64,000 nucleotides of DNA from a virus (Duplodnaviria; Heunggongvirae; Uroviricota; Caudoviricetes), in the IMG/VR virus record IMGVR_UViG_2778261503_000006; one strand, 5' to 3'. The translations under genes were made by a program, and so were the position numbers. Below are positions 3,297-61,954 of the stretch, one piece after another. Numbering within the stretch: the stretch's first letter is position 1; the number at the start of each line of letters is the position of its first letter. Under the pieces are notes generated by a model. The model saw only the letters and a program-made list of their open reading frames with translations, searched no databases and had not been told where the DNA came from.

Positions 3297-5214
3297 CAAT
3301 CCTTTACGAATTAATATTCAGTCTACTTTTGCTGATACGATCCCCGGCTATGTGCCAAGTCGCTGGTCTTCAGAAGAATTAAGCGAAGATGACCTGATTT
3401 TTGAGGCGGCGACCTTAGAAGATATTGAGCTTGCCTATATGGGCAATGAAATTCTGGTTGTGTCTGACGAAGCTATGTTTGAGTCCATAACTACAACCAG
3501 AATTCGGTTAGCTCAAACAATGCGAGCTTTCGTCCGTGCGCTGAATCGTGGCCTGAATGGTACGAATATTATGGCAGGGACTGATGAAGCCGGGACCGAT
3601 GAAAATGGACGTAATTGTATTGGTGGTGCGATTATCGGTCGTGTACGTCGGGTAGCTAATATCCCTGTTTTGACCGCGCAGATACCGCTTACTGACGGGC
3701 AGAGTACAAGCATAATTTTCCACTCTCCAACAGCTGACGGGGCAAAAATAAAGAGTAACGACGAGCTTGTTGCATTTCAGTTTTTACTTAATAAGCGTAA
3801 CGTAACTCACGTTGTCGCCCCGATTGGTGGGAGAGATGTTTCTTTAAGCCAGGTATGCCAGGCGCTATCTAATTTGATTGAGCGTAACAGCGAAAAATTT
3901 AAGAAAGCAAAAGAGCGCCAGGACAAAATGAAGGCAGATATTGAGAGTTATCTCAATGAAGCAGATAAACTGGCAGAAGAACGGTCAATAATGATTGATC
4001 AGGTGGACGTTGCGCAACGTGGGCTGACTGAAAAGCGTGCTGCTCTTACGGAGATGCAAAAAAAACTTGATGCCCAGAAAGCCATCAACGAGGAATTACA
4101 AGAAAAACGCGATAAATTGTTGTCTGCTAAAGGTGAAAAAACGAAGGAACGAGCGTTTAGTGACCAGCTGCGACATGTAAAACATAATCTTGCCATTGAC
4201 GGAAAAACAGTGCTGGATAATGGCGCTGAAGTTAATTATATCACGTCCGGCAGTGACAATTTCGTTACGATAGTAGCACCTGAAGGTAAATTCAGTATTG
4301 ATGCCAGTGCTGTCAAAGGAGGCAGTTTGGCAGATGCTGCAACCAAATTACTTAAAGCCTACCGAGAGCATAACGCAGATAAATATAAAGTTGATGTGTT
4401 ACCAGGCCAGCAGGAAGACCCCGAACCACCACAGACAGACCCCGAGACGAACCCAGTATCACAACCAGAGAGCCAGGATGTAGGTAAATACCACTATGCA
4501 CTTCAATCTCGCCCGGCTGGTGTTGGTGCTGTGCCGGATGGAAATAAAGCCGTGCTTGATCGTCCTGACCAGGCTGATCAGTATTACGAATATGCTCGTC
4601 ACGGTATCATTACGTATGACCGTAAACTGACAGATGAAGAAGTCAGCCAGTACGAGTTGCTCTATCTTCCTGATGAAGATGAGCTGAAAGATTTTGCAGG
4701 CCAATTGGTTGTGTCCAGCATGTCGAAACATATTGATGGCTATGTAGACCTGTTTGGCAGTGACCTGAAAACATTCAAGGCGCAAGTGAAAATTCTTTTC
4801 CGCAAAGCGTTTCCAAACGTGGCGTATCCACTTGGTGATGGGGAGAACCTTTTCATTATGGACGTGTATAACGCCCTTCAAAATCATTCAAGCGAAGTAA
4901 AAACAGAGCATGTGGTTGAGCCGGAATCACAACCACAACCAGCACCAGAACAGGAGCCGGAGCCAGAAGAAGCTGGTGAATCAGCAAGTGAAGCTGATCA
5001 GGAGGCAGATAAAGCACTGGAGTACCTGAAATCCGTGCCGGAGCAGTTTACATCCCGCGATCTGACGGTCATCAGTGCTGAACTTGATCATGTGCAGGAA
5101 GCAGCAAACGCTCTAATCAGCGCAGGTCGATACGACGAGAACGAAGCCACTGTTGGTGCAGCAGTTGACTACCTGATCAACATTCTGGCTGAAATTCAGC
5201 AGGGAGGTGCTTAA
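3283..5214 (+). CDS. darA: DarA-like antirestriction/head-associated protein
   Basis: 643 aa from ATG 3283 with GGAGGA RBS; size and operon position match P1 DarA as I recall it; acidic Pro/Glu-rich linkers. Confidence 0.5.
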   Translation: MSMINNPLRINIQSTFADTIPGYVPSRWSSEELSEDDLIFEAATLEDIELAYMGNEILVVSDEAMFESITTTRIRLAQTMRAFVRALNRGLNGTNIMAGTDEAGTDENGRNCIGGAIIGRVRRVANIPVLTAQIPLTDGQSTSIIFHSPTADGAKIKSNDELVAFQFLLNKRNVTHVVAPIGGRDVSLSQVCQALSNLIERNSEKFKKAKERQDKMKADIESYLNEADKLAEERSIMIDQVDVAQRGLTEKRAALTEMQKKLDAQKAINEELQEKRDKLLSAKGEKTKERAFSDQLRHVKHNLAIDGKTVLDNGAEVNYITSGSDNFVTIVAPEGKFSIDASAVKGGSLADAATKLLKAYREHNADKYKVDVLPGQQEDPEPPQTDPETNPVSQPESQDVGKYHYALQSRPAGVGAVPDGNKAVLDRPDQADQYYEYARHGIITYDRKLTDEEVSQYELLYLPDEDELKDFAGQLVVSSMSKHIDGYVDLFGSDLKTFKAQVKILFRKAFPNVAYPLGDGENLFIMDVYNALQNHSSEVKTEHVVEPESQPQPAPEQEPEPEEAGESASEADQEADKALEYLKSVPEQFTSRDLTVISAELDHVQEAANALISAGRYDENEATVGAAVDYLINILAEIQQGGA

Positions 5215-52799: not shown

Positions 52800-53740
52800 T
52801 GAATCTGTCCATCTCTCAAAAAGCGACAATGACCAGCATTGAGATCGCGGAGCTGGTAGGAAGTCGCCCAGATAGTGTGAAGAGAACTATCGAAACACTG
52901 GCTAAAAAGAGTGTGATCCAATTTCCACAATCTGTGGAAATTGAAAATAAACAATCAGTTGGCCCTCGTCGATTTTCCAAGGCTTACATCTTTGAAGGCG
53001 AACAAGGAAAACGAGACAGCATCATTGTCGTCGCGCAGCTCTCTCCGGAATTCACCGCCCGGCTGGTGGACCGCTGGCGCGAACTGGAGAATGCCCGGGT
53101 ACAGTTAAAATCAAAAGCCGAAATCCTGGCTGAAATGGCGCAAATGCATCTTGAGCATGAACGCCGGATCAACGCCGTAAATGCCCAGGTAGCCGAGGTA
53201 TCAGCACAAGTATCGATGGTCGCTGAAACCGTCGAGCAAATAAAGAAAGGCAATATTCCGGAAGGCTACATTGGCTACCGCCAGTTGGCGGCGAAATGTG
53301 GCCTGACTGAAGCCAAATGTCGCAACCTGGTTAACGCTTACCGGATTCCCACCGATACGCATGAGTTTTTAACTCCAGATGGTTTGCTTGCGCGACGCTC
53401 CATTGTGGCCCTGGCCCCCTTCCGGAAAGCCTTTAAGCAGGTGATGTCAGAGGCAGAACCACGCAATAAACGCTGGTATCATCCAAAGATGGGGATGTTT
53501 CAGGCAATCCACCATCCTGTGCCTGAAAGTCCAAAGGCAAACCTGTCGTTGCATACCGCCAGAGAGAGGATTAAAACAGGCTATGCAATCGTATGCCGTC
53601 GAGCATCCTGGCCTGAAGGTGTATGGGTGTGGCCCGAAGGTGGATCACGAAAGCACTGGCGCACTATCCGGGATGGGAAAATCCATGCGATTGATTTAGC
53701 TCCAGAGGATGTTGTTGCTACGGACTGGATTGTTAGTTAA
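52799..53740 (+). CDS. ant: phage antirepressor (Rha/Ant family) fused to a C-terminal DUF2829-like domain
   Basis: 313 aa; N-terminal MTSIEIAELVGSRPDSVKRTIE; C-terminal YAIVCRRASWPEGVWVWPE...ATDWIVS equals the separate 66-aa ORF of the first copy. Confidence 0.7.
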   Translation: MNLSISQKATMTSIEIAELVGSRPDSVKRTIETLAKKSVIQFPQSVEIENKQSVGPRRFSKAYIFEGEQGKRDSIIVVAQLSPEFTARLVDRWRELENARVQLKSKAEILAEMAQMHLEHERRINAVNAQVAEVSAQVSMVAETVEQIKKGNIPEGYIGYRQLAAKCGLTEAKCRNLVNAYRIPTDTHEFLTPDGLLARRSIVALAPFRKAFKQVMSEAEPRNKRWYHPKMGMFQAIHHPVPESPKANLSLHTARERIKTGYAIVCRRASWPEGVWVWPEGGSRKHWRTIRDGKIHAIDLAPEDVVATDWIVS

Positions 53741-54413: not shown

Positions 54414-54719
54414 ATGCTCTATGCGGTTCCTCAGCAAGCTTCTGATTCTTTGAAGTTAATCAAGACTGTACTTCAGCTTATAGCATCTCAACAAGAAGTG
54501 TCACAGCAGTTAAAGTTACGGGTTTATGAGGTGATCAGAGAAGCCTCAAACTTAAGTGTAGATAAAGGTGATCAATTACAGATTCCTTCTCACAGAGAGT
54601 CCATCTCGCTCGCGGTAGAGATACGCCACACTAAGGCGCTCGCCCAGGTGCTAACCAAAGTAACTAGCGAAGATATGTTAGAACCCGTAATGGCCCGGAA
54701 TGTATTAGAGTACATTTAA
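54414..54719 (+). CDS. small helical protein, first gene of AT-rich three-gene operon
   Basis: 101 aa; ATG 54414 with AAAAGGAGGGG RBS. Confidence 0.5.
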   Translation: MLYAVPQQASDSLKLIKTVLQLIASQQEVSQQLKLRVYEVIREASNLSVDKGDQLQIPSHRESISLAVEIRHTKALAQVLTKVTSEDMLEPVMARNVLEYI

Positions 54720-55792
54720 TGCTTGCATTTACACAACTTACATTAGTTCGAAATAAGCTAAGGGAGATATCAGAATCTCCCTATTTTTCTAAAGACATGC
54801 ATGAATATCTTGCTGTTCTACAAGAAGCGGTAGATAAGCTCTATGAAAACCATGTGAATGTTGCTGATAAAATAATTGCGGATTGTACTTTTTTTATCAC
54901 CGATGCAGTTAATTTTTTCACTGGCAGTACTACAAAGAAAATTCCCTACGAGATTGTTTATTGCTTAAATGATGCCTGTAAAAAATGGATAAGTGAAAAA
55001 ACACTTATAACCACAGCCCTATCTCCAGATATGCATGGGTTTTATTTTAAGTCTGTAAACAAGAATTTGTATTCTTTATTTGATGAAGTTTTAAATGTCA
55101 AATTCGAGGTCGAATTAATTCAGATTTCATTACCTGAAATGTACAGAAGACGACCATTATGCTCTATACCTTTATATCACGAATTGGGACATTTCGTTGA
55201 TATTAGCAAAGGTATTTCTGAGCTTGCCTGTCTTAACTATCGTTCCAAGGACAAAGGCACACTTCCAGGACCAGAATGGAGTAATCTACCTGATGTTATT
55301 TGGATAAATCATTGCAGAGAATATTTTGCAGATCTATTTAGTGCCCAATTTATTGGAAAAAGTGGGGTAGATTTCTTATACAAATTAGCTGGCTCTCATC
55401 CTGCAAGCTATACTCACCCATCCACAGAAGATAGAGTTAAAATTGTAAGCGACTTTTTGAACAAAGTGGAAAATCCAGTTGTTGGCATGTTCAATGCTGT
55501 GATATCAGCCTTACATAAGGGTGGGCAGATTATTTCTCCTTGTTTGACATTGCCGACACCTTTGCTTGATGTGAAATCAGCTTTTGATAATGTGCGTCCT
55601 TTTGTTATTCGCGACCACAATGAAATGCATGCTTTTATTAACAGCAGCTGGCAGTACTTATGCTCTGAATGGGAAAAACCTACGGGTATATGGTCTGGGT
55701 TGTCAAAAGAAGCCATAGAAAAAACTATAAATGATTTGGTTGAAAAATCGATTCGAAACGTAATGATTCTTGAAAAATGGAGTGCACAATGA
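54719..55792 (+). CDS. HExxH zinc-metallopeptidase-like protein
   Basis: 357 aa; HELGH at nt 55178-55192; AT-rich; translationally coupled to both neighbours. Confidence 0.6.
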   Translation: MLAFTQLTLVRNKLREISESPYFSKDMHEYLAVLQEAVDKLYENHVNVADKIIADCTFFITDAVNFFTGSTTKKIPYEIVYCLNDACKKWISEKTLITTALSPDMHGFYFKSVNKNLYSLFDEVLNVKFEVELIQISLPEMYRRRPLCSIPLYHELGHFVDISKGISELACLNYRSKDKGTLPGPEWSNLPDVIWINHCREYFADLFSAQFIGKSGVDFLYKLAGSHPASYTHPSTEDRVKIVSDFLNKVENPVVGMFNAVISALHKGGQIISPCLTLPTPLLDVKSAFDNVRPFVIRDHNEMHAFINSSWQYLCSEWEKPTGIWSGLSKEAIEKTINDLVEKSIRNVMILEKWSAQ

Positions 55793-56406
55793 ATCTCCTA
55801 AGCAAAGCTGAATTGCTGCAATATTATGAATCAGAAGAACCTGAGTCGTTGTTCATTGAACCTCTTCTAAATAAAAACCAAATTGGAAACTTCACCATAG
55901 ACCTTAGACTTGGTTACGATTTTTTAGTGTCTATTATGACAAGGAAGCCGTCAATAGAGTTAATTCCCTCAAAAAACAATGATACTCATCAACCAATCAG
56001 AACATTTTTCCAGGAAACAAGGAGAGATCTTGGGGATAGGTTCATTGTTTACCCGAATCAAGTGGTACTGGCAACAACATTAGAATATGTTTGTTTGCCA
56101 CCAGATTGCTACGCTGATGTATTGTCCAGAAGCAGCTATACAAGGCTTGGTCTTTCATTAAATACCATGATACAACCAGGGTACAGAGGCTGTATATCTT
56201 TAGAGTTATTTAATCATGGGAATAGCCCTGTAGAACTTATTGTTGGATCTCGCATATGTCAAATTCGTATATTCAAGAATGAAACTGTCGGTGAATACAT
56301 AAGTCATGAGTCTCACAGGAAATATTTCGGAAATGTGAGGCCAACCGTCTCAGCAGCAGAAAGTGATAATGAATTAAATATGCTGGAAAAGATCCGACAA
56401 AAATGA
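55777..56406 (+). CDS. dCTP deaminase / dUTPase-fold enzyme (Dcd-like); alternative start ATG 55789
   Basis: IDLRLG, SSYTRLGL, PGYRGCISLELFN, GSRICQIRIF blocks align with E. coli Dcd. Confidence 0.7.
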   Translation: MECTMNLLSKAELLQYYESEEPESLFIEPLLNKNQIGNFTIDLRLGYDFLVSIMTRKPSIELIPSKNNDTHQPIRTFFQETRRDLGDRFIVYPNQVVLATTLEYVCLPPDCYADVLSRSSYTRLGLSLNTMIQPGYRGCISLELFNHGNSPVELIVGSRICQIRIFKNETVGEYISHESHRKYFGNVRPTVSAAESDNELNMLEKIRQK

Positions 56407-56494
56407 AAACTTTAATGCTTTATATTATAAAAACATACAGCGACAACGCAGCCACCAAGATGTGTTGTCGCCATGTTCAAAGTGCTAACACAGT

Positions 56495-56887
56495 TTAAAA
56501 ATCACCTGCGCGCTGTTTTTCAAGCACAGATTTAACATTTGGCACTTTCCCTTTAAAAGAATGGAAAGTGCCACATTTTTCTGTTTTAACTTCGCGCAGA
56601 GCTTCGCCATCGGCGTTCTGCCATTGATGGGATAATGTCATATCACCGCGAGAAGGAACATCCAGCGAGTACAGCGTGTAAGTTCCCCCCATCTCCGCAT
56701 ACTCCTGGAACACATAGCTCATTACGTCAGATTCAGTTTTTCGGTGTACGTTATCAACCTTATTCCCATTCAGAAATATGGCATCTGGATAGATTTTTAT
56801 ATCAAACCGACCGCACTTAACTTGTAAATTTCCGGCGCTCGCGATCAAAGGGAAAGACGCCAGTAAAGCAATTGTCAATCTTTTCAA
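56495..56887 (-). CDS. secreted small protein with signal peptide
   Basis: 130 aa; MKRLTIALLASFPLIASA signal peptide. Confidence 0.5.
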   Translation of the reverse strand: MKRLTIALLASFPLIASAGNLQVKCGRFDIKIYPDAIFLNGNKVDNVHRKTESDVMSYVFQEYAEMGGTYTLYSLDVPSRGDMTLSHQWQNADGEALREVKTEKCGTFHSFKGKVPNVKSVLEKQRAGDF

Positions 56888-56907
56888 TTCTGCCTCCGCT
56901 GCGTAAC

Positions 56908-57531
56908 TTATTGCCCGTATTTTTTACACCATTGCTCTGCCATTTGTTTGGCTAAAGGCCCGGCTACTGCACTGTATTCTGCTGTTTTACTTTGCACACA
57001 TGAAGCAGATGGTTTTTTATTTCGCTGCTCGGTTAGTTTGCGCTCATAAGCCATCATGCTATCGAACCCGGCAATATCACTTTGGCGAAGCATTCCCTTT
57101 TTAACCAAAAATTGCTGCCCCTCGGGCACCAACGCAAGCATAAAAAGTGGTTGCAATAACTCACCTAATCCTTGCTGGCGATACACTTCGAATTGCTGCC
57201 ATCCCTGACTTAATCTGGAAAGAGTATCTTTGGTTGAATAACCTGTTTTTGTTATAGCTTTGTCCGTCAGATATGCTGTATATGCAAAAACGCAAAAGTC
57301 AGTTTTACCAATAAACTGAGTTCCAACAGGCCGTAATGGAATGCCCTCCCTCTTGCAAAAGTCCATAATGGCCGCTTGTGAATGATCCCCACCAGCATTA
57401 TTCATAACCTGCTGCCCTGCCCTGAATTGTGCAGGTAACGCAGTTGCATTGGCAGTATTAGCAGATACGCATCCCAACATAGCCGCGAGCGCGGCCCCTA
57501 AAACCCTTAACTTCACTACACCATCCTTCAT
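56908..57531 (-). CDS. secreted/periplasmic protein with signal peptide
   Basis: 207 aa; LRVLGAALAAMLGCVSANTANA N-terminus. Confidence 0.5.
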   Translation of the reverse strand: MKDGVVKLRVLGAALAAMLGCVSANTANATALPAQFRAGQQVMNNAGGDHSQAAIMDFCKREGIPLRPVGTQFIGKTDFCVFAYTAYLTDKAITKTGYSTKDTLSRLSQGWQQFEVYRQQGLGELLQPLFMLALVPEGQQFLVKKGMLRQSDIAGFDSMMAYERKLTEQRNKKPSASCVQSKTAEYSAVAGPLAKQMAEQWCKKYGQ

Positions 57532-57799
57532 GTAAACAAAATGAAGTTTTATGTTATAAAAACAATTAACTACATCAACATGATTTAGGCCAAATTTCGG
57601 TCAAAAAATAAAATCCACAAAAAGTGGTTGACACTATTTTGGAAATCACAAACTGCACATAATCCATCGCGCTAACGGCTCCCGTTGAAGGTTCTTTTGA
57701 CGATTAACTTTCAGCCGAAGCGCGGTAGGGAGTCATAACGCCAAAGCAGGCCGCCATGTGCGGCCTTTTTTTGTATCCGTCATCCGTGGAGGAAGGAAA

Positions 57800-58453
57800 A
57801 TGGAAAAGATCGCAATATTCAGCCTGACCACCAGCAAGCCTCAAATGCTCACTGCAATACTGAAAGACGGTGCTCTCATTATTAACGAAGTAAAACCCCT
57901 TCCCGCGTCAGCATTGGAGCAAAAGCAAAAAATTCCTCCAGCTATAGCAGCCCTGCGGAAAAGCAAATTTAAGGTTCTAGTAGACGAAATTACGCCAACG
58001 ATCTCCGCTGGCACCGGAGCAAGCCAGGTGACTCTCAAGACCCGTCATGCCGATGGTAGAGCAGCAATCATCGTTGGGATGGAAAGATACAGAGAGTTAA
58101 AACTCCAGAAACTATTATCCCTGCCGCAAAATAACAAAGGTGCTTTCGAAATCCCCGACTCTATCGTTGATACCGAATACAACGGTAACGGAGAAGAAGT
58201 CTACAGGGTGAACTGGCAGGATATCAGGCCGGAGCATATTTTGATGATCCTGTGTTGCTACGCGACCGTATACCACAACGTTGCCAGTGCAGATTATGTA
58301 GAGCAGATGACCGGTACAGTCGAGAAAGAGCAAAAAACAGGCATACTCGCTTCGTTCCTGTCCATTATTGGGCATGAAAAAGTTAAAGCAGGCACCTCCC
58401 AGCCAAAGTCACTGGCTGGGAAAGAAGTTGATGAAGATACCGTGATACTTTGA
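57800..58453 (+). CDS. hypothetical protein
   Basis: 217 aa from ATG 57800 with GGAGGAAGG RBS. Confidence 0.45.
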   Translation: MEKIAIFSLTTSKPQMLTAILKDGALIINEVKPLPASALEQKQKIPPAIAALRKSKFKVLVDEITPTISAGTGASQVTLKTRHADGRAAIIVGMERYRELKLQKLLSLPQNNKGAFEIPDSIVDTEYNGNGEEVYRVNWQDIRPEHILMILCCYATVYHNVASADYVEQMTGTVEKEQKTGILASFLSIIGHEKVKAGTSQPKSLAGKEVDEDTVIL

Positions 58454-61059: not shown

Positions 61060-61198
61060 ATAAACTACCGTGATTTCTAATATCTATTTTATGAAAATTC
61101 ATTTCCGGTTCGTTATCGAACATCGGTTCGACCGCACGCAGTGCGGCCTCATAATCTTGTTCTGTACGGATAGATTTAATGTTCATTAATTACAAAGG

Positions 61199-61225
61199 AA
61201 AGCCCACTTGCTAAGTGGGCTTTTT
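61199..61225. terminator. hairpin plus T-run between minus-strand genes
   Basis: aaagcccacttgctaagtgggcttt followed by tttt. Confidence 0.6.
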
Positions 61226-61242
61226 GTATGTGTTTTACTATA

Positions 61243-61581
61243 TCAGGCTGCTTTTTTATTCAGGTTCCGCTGAGAAATAAATTTTTCAGCAGTATTGATA
61301 CGACTTAACTCTTCCTGAACGCGCATATCATTTTCGACTTCCCACAGGTCTACTGCGGTCTGAAGATTAATCCAAAAATCTACAGAAGTATCGAATGCTT
61401 TTGCCAGGCGATATGCCATATCCATCGTTAGCTTACGATTATTATTAACAAGAGCACTTACGGTGTTACGATGAACATGAAGTATTTCTGCTAACTCGTT
61501 GATCTTCAGCTCTAACGGCTCCAGGTATTCGTACAGCAGGATATCACCTACGGTCGTCGGTTTTCTGGTTGCCTGTTTCAT
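61243..61581 (-). CDS. higA: HigA-family antitoxin (HTH)
   Basis: 112 aa; ILLYEYLEPLELKINELAEILHVHRNTVSALVNN HTH. Confidence 0.8.
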   Translation of the reverse strand: MKQATRKPTTVGDILLYEYLEPLELKINELAEILHVHRNTVSALVNNNRKLTMDMAYRLAKAFDTSVDFWINLQTAVDLWEVENDMRVQEELSRINTAEKFISQRNLNKKAA

Positions 61582-61651
61582 TTTTTGCCCTTACTAGCGT
61601 GCGTATTAAGTGGACTCTGGTCAGAACCCGGTCCGTAACCGGGTATCTGTT

Positions 61652-61954
61652 TTAGTATTTGTGAGGGTCGAGATACAAGTCCTCGGCCTTTCCGTTAACC
61701 CACCTAAAAATTAACCTATATTGCTTATTCACCCTTACTGATGAATAGCCATTTAGCTTCCCTGACAGTTCCTCATACCGATTACCTGGTGGTGATCTTA
61801 AATCCTTACAGGTAGTTGCGGCATTGATAATGTCCAACTTCCGTGACAATGTCATATGAATATCAGGAGGTATCTTTCTATGTGGTGTTGAAAATTCAAA
61901 AAAATCATCAAGCCACGCATCCCTGAAATCCTTTATGTTAATTTTTTTGGTCAT
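61652..61954 (-). CDS. higB: HigB-family toxin (RelE/ParE superfamily)
   Basis: 100 aa; GNRYEELSGKLNGYSSVRVNKQYRLIFRWVNGKAEDLYLDPHKY matches HigB C-terminal pattern; toxin-first order. Confidence 0.8.
   Translation of the reverse strand: MTKKINIKDFRDAWLDDFFEFSTPHRKIPPDIHMTLSRKLDIINAATTCKDLRSPPGNRYEELSGKLNGYSSVRVNKQYRLIFRWVNGKAEDLYLDPHKY

Follow-up and report, generated by a model that had tools for sequence, protein, structure and literature searches.

The window analysed here is a 64,000-nt stretch of viral DNA (IMG/VR record IMGVR_UViG_2778261503_000006) that represents a D6/P1-like phage-plasmid, and the region of interest within it is 100% identical to plasmid p95_MLI121 of E. coli MLI121. 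Its gene order runs from Ref, ash, icd, a shortened Rha/ant gene, and a pmgF-like gene, through a low-GC insert of three genes, to a pair of minus-strand genes, here called B and A, which are followed by mat, gene 26, gene 25, and HigBA. The slot occupied by the pair lies between the immI region (icd/ant) and mat. A preliminary description of this DNA had proposed two minus-strand ORFs, of 207 and 130 amino acids, each with a signal peptide; both ORFs are present (Table 1), and the predicted signal peptides are supported by n-region, hydrophobic-core, and AXA features that are conserved in the two families.

The surroundings of the pair present some features of their own. In the immI region, RefSeq describes the Rha/Ant-type antirepressor gene (about 52814–53509, plus strand) as truncated, with its C-terminus missing, and the truncated gene is also found in several related plasmids (L002, L004, L005, and L007). 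Beyond gene 25 there is a HigB/HigA toxin-antitoxin pair (about 61106–61771, minus strand) whose position is conserved in D6 and in two distant D6-like contigs, L008 and L014. The sit gene (tape-measure/transglycosylase) falls outside the window.

Table 1. Positions of the A and B genes and of associated features in the window
Feature	Position	Strand	Remarks
Terminator-like hairpin and T-run	56438..56457	-	Downstream of B; terminator scan
Left cassette breakpoint	56493..56495		Similarity begins exactly at the B stop codon in plasmids without the dcd operon
Gene B	56495..56887	-	130 aa, TTG start; AlphaFold model and alignments
B signal-peptide codons (predicted)	56834..56887	-	MKRLTIALLASFPLIASA, then GN
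A-B spacer	56888..56907	-	20 nt, carries the GGAGG of B; terminator scan negative
Gene A	56908..57531	-	207-aa ORF from ATG; RefSeq/PGAP product WP_000776951
A signal-peptide codons (predicted)	57445..57516	-	MKLRVLGAALAAMLGCVSANTANA, then T, counted from the GTG
Right cassette breakpoint	57474..57480		Within the A signal-peptide codons; megablast and segment BLAST
Divergent intergenic region	57532..57799		Common to A-B and mat; presumed A-B promoter region

Gene structure and predicted products

The ATG at position 57531 that opens the A reading frame is not preceded by a Shine-Dalgarno sequence, and an in-frame GTG at 57516 has AAGGA 7 nt before it and is the start chosen by RefSeq/PGAP, giving a protein of 202 aa. 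The ribosome-binding sequence at the GTG, its absence at the ATG, and the choice made by PGAP together indicate that the true A product is probably this shorter form. Counted from the GTG, the N-terminus of A (MKLRVLGAALAAMLGCVSANTANA, followed by TALPA) combines a K/R n-region, a hydrophobic core, and an AXA-type site. In the window allele, the signal peptide also contains a lipobox-like MLGC motif. In family alignments, however, the cysteine of this motif is replaced by glycine in P0002, P0003, and P0008, and the motif is missing altogether from distant members. Since MLGC is not kept across alleles, a lipoprotein reading of the family was ruled out and A is best classed as a predicted substrate of signal peptidase I, with the window allele remaining ambiguous owing to its MLGC. 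Four cysteines are conserved in A (C59, C80, C178, and C202), and the residues that are invariant across the whole family (C59, C80, G97-Y98-S99, T103, P128, G138, and D152) form a GYS-x-KDT signature. An AlphaFold2 model of A built from an eight-sequence alignment is all-alpha, with nine helices and a mean pLDDT of 83, exceeding 90 for most of residues 30–160 and falling below 50 for residues 1–27. No structural neighbour of this confident model was found in PDB or BFVD, and the modelled fold thus appears to be without a known structural relative. The variable part of the protein is a C-terminal helical hairpin (residues ~165–207) that includes C178 and C202; some alleles carry an alternative version of this hairpin, and in the natural fusions considered below the B domain stands in its place.

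The TTG start of B sits 5 nt after its GGAGG ribosome-binding site, and the N-terminus of the protein (MKRLTIALLASFPLIASA, followed by GN) shows the same succession of K/R n-region, hydrophobic core, and AXA-type site. As read from these sequence features, the hydrophobic cores of A and B both exceed a Kyte-Doolittle value of 2.4 over 10 residues, and the three-part pattern recurs in every member of the A and B families examined, as well as in all three P1 Sim proteins. Alignments of B reveal two conserved cysteines (C25 and C105), and its AlphaFold model is mostly beta, with eight strands and a pLDDT of 67. Taken with the signal-peptide pattern, the conserved cysteines of A and B fit predicted disulfide-bonded periplasmic proteins. 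Pairwise dN/dS values (0.10–0.15 for A and 0.13 for B) identify both as constrained coding genes and, together with their conservation, exclude chance or artefactual ORFs. Structure searches with the folds of A and B returned no functional hint.

The short spacer between A and B and the negative terminator scan within it make co-transcription of the two genes plausible. The terminator-like hairpin downstream of B belongs to DNA brought by the three-gene insert, and this segment is missing in other lineages. The divergent intergenic region upstream of A, on the other side of the pair, constitutes the constant part of the slot, being 96–98% identical in D6 and in plasmids of the SimB type discussed below. 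A simple scan of this region detected no consensus sigma-70 promoter, and the sole candidate for A-B in a relaxed scan is a weak TTGATG-N16-TAACAT on the minus strand (57578–57551). The intergenic region likewise lacks a P1-type late-promoter motif, no P1 C1 operator is present in the window, and Rfam produced only chance-level matches in the region. Since neither a promoter nor a repressor operator was found by these scans, expression of the pair in the lysogen can only be inferred.

The same intergenic region contains, on the plus strand, a strong terminator-like hairpin (AGGCCGCCATGTGCGGCCT followed by T7, 57748–57766) upstream of the mat ATG at 57800. The mechanical ORF call places the start of mat at a GTG inside this hairpin (57758), whereas PGAP selects the ATG. 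Lying after a perfect TTGACA hexamer (about 57626) and before the start of mat, the hairpin suggests a putative leader/attenuator or small RNA ahead of that gene; it has no match in Rfam.

The slot beside mat and its occupants

Two breakpoints delimit the cassette, one coinciding with the end of B and the other interrupting A within its signal-peptide codons. Of the A ORF, D6-type plasmids retain just the initial ~58 nt. The GC content of the pair is backbone-like (42–45%), unlike that of the insert directly to the left of B (33–39%), which occupies 54414–56406 on the plus strand. This insert encodes a 101-aa protein, a 357-aa protein with a zinc-protease-like HELGH (HExxH) motif and a weak match to Peptidase_M48, and a 209-aa dCTP-deaminase-like protein (PF22769, E 1e-30), after which it is here called the dcd insert. 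Its genes match no PADLOC model, and the insert may be an undescribed nucleotide-depletion defence system. The block of five genes formed by the dcd insert, B, and A is present in 12 of 128 related PLSDB plasmids. [quoted passage not shown] The same five-gene block as in the window is present in pSL26_91 at 99% identity.

Comparison of the window with the L004 lineage indicates that the components of the slot have followed different histories. With a dN of 0.24, A exceeds the neighbouring mat (0.079) threefold, gene 26 standing at 0.038, and the dS of B (0.29) lies far below that of its neighbours (0.97 to >1.6), which indicates that B has been exchanged recently between lineages. In L004 and L007 (CP159120) the Mat proteins are identical, but the A alleles differ (dN 0.135) and the second gene is B in one and a long form of SimB in the other. 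The rapid divergence of A, the low dS of B, and the contrast between L004 and L007 identify the slot beside mat, as judged from these alignments, as a recombining cassette and a recombination hot spot. Proteins that evolve fast and are nonetheless constrained are what would be expected of cargo related to conflict.

The coupling of A and B is most evident in natural fusions of the two proteins (P0024, 277 aa, and P0026, 281 aa). These consist of a signal peptide, an A domain (A residues ~6–165), a Gly/Ser/Ala-rich linker, and a B domain without the B signal peptide, which begins near the predicted B cleavage site. The fusions miss the first 16–18 residues of B, and their alignment to B starts at residue 17 in P0024 and at residue 21 in P0026, a boundary that supports removal of the predicted B signal peptide. 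B is 67% identical to P0024 (E 5e-60) and 39% identical to P0026 (E 1e-23), and A is 40% identical to P0024 (E 4e-37). Fusions are encountered in Enterobacter and in metagenomic relatives; they occupy the same slot, divergent from a mat homologue, in an 83.6-kb contig (L008) and in p60214CZ_1 of Enterobacter hormaechei. Natural fusions of this kind are Rosetta-stone evidence that A and B act together as one unit. The A-then-B order is also preserved, with 30–47% identity, in a decayed pair on a Vibrio parahaemolyticus plasmid, which shows the pairing to be old and its genes to be open to loss. This pair (L020, pLH214-1, NZ_CP085859, 3923–4943) adjoins RepB on a conjugative plasmid and has a stop codon in the A signal peptide and frameshifts in B.

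In D6 (L001, NC_050154), the slot holds a different gene, gp048 (4141–5037, minus strand), which encodes 298 aa and is annotated as [quoted passage not shown] Residues 52–137 of its product are 52% identical to P1 SimB (E 9e-27). The annotated D6 ORF is a chimera: it opens with MKLMVLGTALAA, its first ~14–21 codons being left over from the signal peptide of A and fused in frame, and the secreted SimB-like protein itself probably starts at MFFIKNGKR, with a signal peptide of its own. Beyond the SimB domain, the D6 protein comprises a C-terminal domain of ~160 aa without a P1 counterpart. Because L007 carries an A-family gene followed by the long SimB form, D6 looks like a deletion derivative of an A-then-long-SimB arrangement.

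A census by tblastn of all the A loci fetched found A in the promoter-proximal position in every one. The gene is followed by B in the window, in L004, and, in decayed form, in Vibrio; it is fused to B in L008/9, L019, and L010; it is followed by a SimB homologue in L007 and L014 (long form) and in L016 (short form); and nothing follows it in L013, L015, L017, and L021. In L010, a short SimB homologue stands directly before the A::B fusion. Given the rarity of A and the independence of the four contexts in which it adjoins SimB (L007, L014, L016, and L010), these adjacencies cannot be due to chance. The window has no homologue of SimB or SimC, and the link to sim hence consists in the neighbourhood of A in its relatives. 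A secreted 123-aa neighbour of A in L016 was considered as a remote homologue of B and set aside as not significant (2 bits). Neither the A::B fusions nor the linkage of A to SimB was found described in the accessible literature. The analysis shows that secreted proteins of three or more unrelated families (A, B, and SimB) are shuffled in the sim slot, where A and B also occur as natural fusions.

Both families are small. Of 5426 complete E. coli genomes, 48 carry the A and B pair, nearly always on plasmids, and a tblastn search of PLSDB located A in 69 plasmids, 67 of which are non-mobilizable, distributed among Escherichia (52), Shigella (6), Salmonella (6), Enterobacter (2), Citrobacter (2), and Vibrio (1). 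Among the matches listed, these plasmids are mostly of the size of phage-plasmids (~80–97 kb). An exhaustive profile search of 1.84 billion representative proteins yielded 22 matches for A, and a word-indexed search of 5.8 billion clusters yielded 10 clusters for A, 11 for B, and 4 for SimC. No match to A or B was obtained by tblastn in 50,697 phage records. Members of family A that stand alone include one next to an integrase (L017), one on a Rep3 plasmid-like contig with no phage genes in view (L013), and one on an IncF plasmid (L021). A distant member, P0029, is found on a Logan contig (L015, 575–3735), where its neighbours encode a Rep3-type replication protein, a homologue of Mat (51% identity), and a protein resembling that of gene 26, and where the gene of a large autotransporter comes next; L015 looks like a more remote D6-like element. 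A B-family gene without A, 83% identical to that of the window, lies among IS21, IS1, IS3, and IS30 elements in the 129-kb E. coli plasmid pEcFELIX705.1 (L006, NZ_CP101916, 3501–3920).

Comparison with known envelope systems

The preliminary description had recognised no family for either protein, and broader searches agree: A and B have no match in Pfam, NCBIfam, or PADLOC, which returned 0 families of known anti-phage defence for both, nor in PDB sequence profiles, and their only PHROG matches (12786 and 13864) are to families of unknown function. Its view of the pair as envelope-acting cargo also fits, since the two genes encode proteins with predicted signal peptides and belong to a region of the phage-plasmid that is accessory and recombines. 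Three activities had been put forward for this cargo. For inhibition of lysozyme, the terms of comparison are MliC/PliC and Ivy, small exported proteins with disulfides, as A and B are predicted to be, B moreover being predicted as a small eight-stranded beta protein; this identity is not supported, since neither A nor B has a Pfam match to MliC, PliC, Ivy, or LprI, and neither the eight-stranded beta-barrel fold of MliC/PliC nor the Ivy fold was recognised in them. Receptor masking of the Cor/Llp type has no support either, given that the cysteine of the lipobox-like MLGC is not conserved in family A and that PHROG assignments are confined to the two families named above. The third activity, superinfection exclusion, has fared better: the pair occupies the same slot as the SimB-like gene of D6, and A adjoins SimB in four contexts, although homology to SimC is lacking.

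The simA-simB-simC operon of P1 offers the closest term of comparison. This operon was reportedly defined genetically by Devlin and colleagues in 1982 (cited in PMC10695390), is said to cause superinfection exclusion after adsorption, as described by Kliem and Dreiseikelmann in 1989 (cited in PMC10433841), and reportedly needs signal-peptide processing, according to work by Maillou and Dreiseikelmann in 1990. Among the Sim proteins, exclusion has been demonstrated for SimC alone, and the role of SimB is just "putative accessory." To our knowledge, the mechanism of Sim has never been solved, and the Sim proteins are orphans. Like sim, A-B is a prophage-plasmid operon of small proteins, with predicted Sec export, encoded beside immI; both are accessory and belong to tiny orphan families. 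The two nonetheless differ in location, sim lying between pmgC and c4 and A-B between the immI/pmgF-like genes and mat, and in phenotype, exclusion having been demonstrated for P1 sim only. D6 gp048, for its part, shares with A-B the slot, the promoter region, and predicted secretion, but is an unrelated protein.

Homology between these systems was sought directly. The best BLASTP E values of A and B against SimC are 0.57 and 3.3, with an hhalign probability below 1%, and family HMMs of A and B found no match in a six-frame translation of the P1 sim region. The SimB pattern (DFSKxDCN...NKLxCxGxYxxSDG...NSLG) has no equivalent in the pair: A and B give no significant alignment with the SimB-like protein of D6, and hhalign assigns 0.1%. 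With BLASTP, hhalign, and HMMs, neither A nor B shows detectable homology to SimA, SimB, SimC, or the C-terminal domain of the D6 protein, and such a relationship was rejected. By position and neighbourhood, the locus is still of the sim type, with secreted-protein genes in a slot near immI and A linked to SimB, so that it can be assigned to a known kind, that of prophage-encoded secreted accessory proteins at a sim-like exclusion locus, of which families A and B themselves are uncharacterised.

Beyond P1, T4 Spackle (Sp), T4 Imm, and HK97 gp15 are injection blockers located in the periplasm or the inner membrane, and Spackle in particular is a small helical periplasmic protein. They resemble the activity here proposed for A-B in that a phage-encoded envelope protein stops the DNA of related phages from entering after adsorption.

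Possible functions of the A-B pair

The presence of a SimB-like gene in this slot in D6, and of SimB homologues next to A in relatives, leads us to propose, tentatively and at slightly less than even odds, that A-B is a Sim-like superinfection-exclusion module, a periplasmic complex made by the lysogen. The proposal draws on position and neighbourhood, since the pair has no homology to SimC from which an exclusion function could be transferred. According to this proposal, A and B would be exported by Sec and processed by signal peptidase I; disulfides would stabilise them in the periplasm, and they would probably act there as a complex. The lysogen would thus hold the pair in its periplasm, where it would stop superinfecting D6/P1-like phages after adsorption, presumably by attaching to some component of the incoming DNA-ejection apparatus that is exposed to the periplasm, as has been supposed for P1 Sim.

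The same proteins could instead serve the host, as a periplasmic protective or immunity module against lysozyme or other peptidoglycan hydrolases, colicins, or T6SS periplasmic effectors. Small proteins predicted to contain disulfides and to reside in the periplasm, carried as cargo on a mobile element, would suit such a role; some A members do occur where no phage context can be recognised (L013, L017, and, on an IncF plasmid, L021), and the eight-stranded model of B superficially resembles the folds of small periplasmic inhibitors. We nevertheless regard host protection as unlikely, because A and B match neither MliC, PliC, Ivy, LprI, nor any other family in Pfam, and because family A is almost confined to D6-like phage-plasmids, in which it is linked to SimB.

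A role in the lytic cycle, in which the pair would be transcribed with late or maturation genes and would remodel the envelope, time lysis, or block the re-adsorption or injection of progeny, would account for the divergent arrangement of A-B with mat (maturation control), for the proximity of the baseplate genes 26 and 25, for a base composition closer to the backbone than to the dcd insert, and for the failure of the simple scan to detect a sigma-70 consensus promoter. The slot, however, is dispensable and variable, and D6, which lacks A and B, has yet been propagated as a phage on E. coli C600. Moreover, the P1-type late-promoter motif is missing from the intergenic region, and the sim genes of P1 are non-essential (PMC10695390), all of which makes a lytic function decidedly improbable.

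Very improbable, finally, is a secreted effector with its partner, be it a toxin accompanied by an immunity protein or a chaperone, or a factor for adhesion or virulence directed at other cells or at the animal host. The two-gene architecture, the polymorphic C-terminal modules of A, the exchange of cassettes, and the proximity of an autotransporter in L015 and of sslE and Ail/Lom in L021 would be in keeping with it. Toxin-immunity pairs, however, do not usually have Sec signals on both proteins or occur as fusions, as A and B do in relatives. Searches of Pfam, NCBIfam, and PADLOC revealed no domain of a toxin, an enzyme, or a secretion system in A or B, and no dedicated export route past the periplasm is encoded nearby.

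A more ambitious form of the exclusion proposal can also be envisaged, although it must be considered doubtful. Here A, B, SimB in its short and long forms, and SimC would be interchangeable parts of a combinatorial periplasmic exclusion toolkit, in which A would contribute a previously unseen all-alpha fold and A-B would act as an allele-specific trap for the ejection apparatus, for instance for the tape-measure/Sit transglycosylase. If this were true, phage-plasmid competition would be structured by "exclusion types," and the 40-year-old problem of the Sim mechanism would become tractable.

Phage-plasmids of the D6/P1 type are widespread in E. coli, Salmonella, and Shigella, and resistance genes are carried by elements related to them. 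Whether such elements co-infect a cell or displace one another depends on their immunity and exclusion functions, and A and B provide concrete, small, soluble targets for pull-downs of virion proteins and for structure determination. Should their function prove not to be exclusion, A-B would still represent a conserved periplasmic two-component module on plasmids that are frequent in the clinic.
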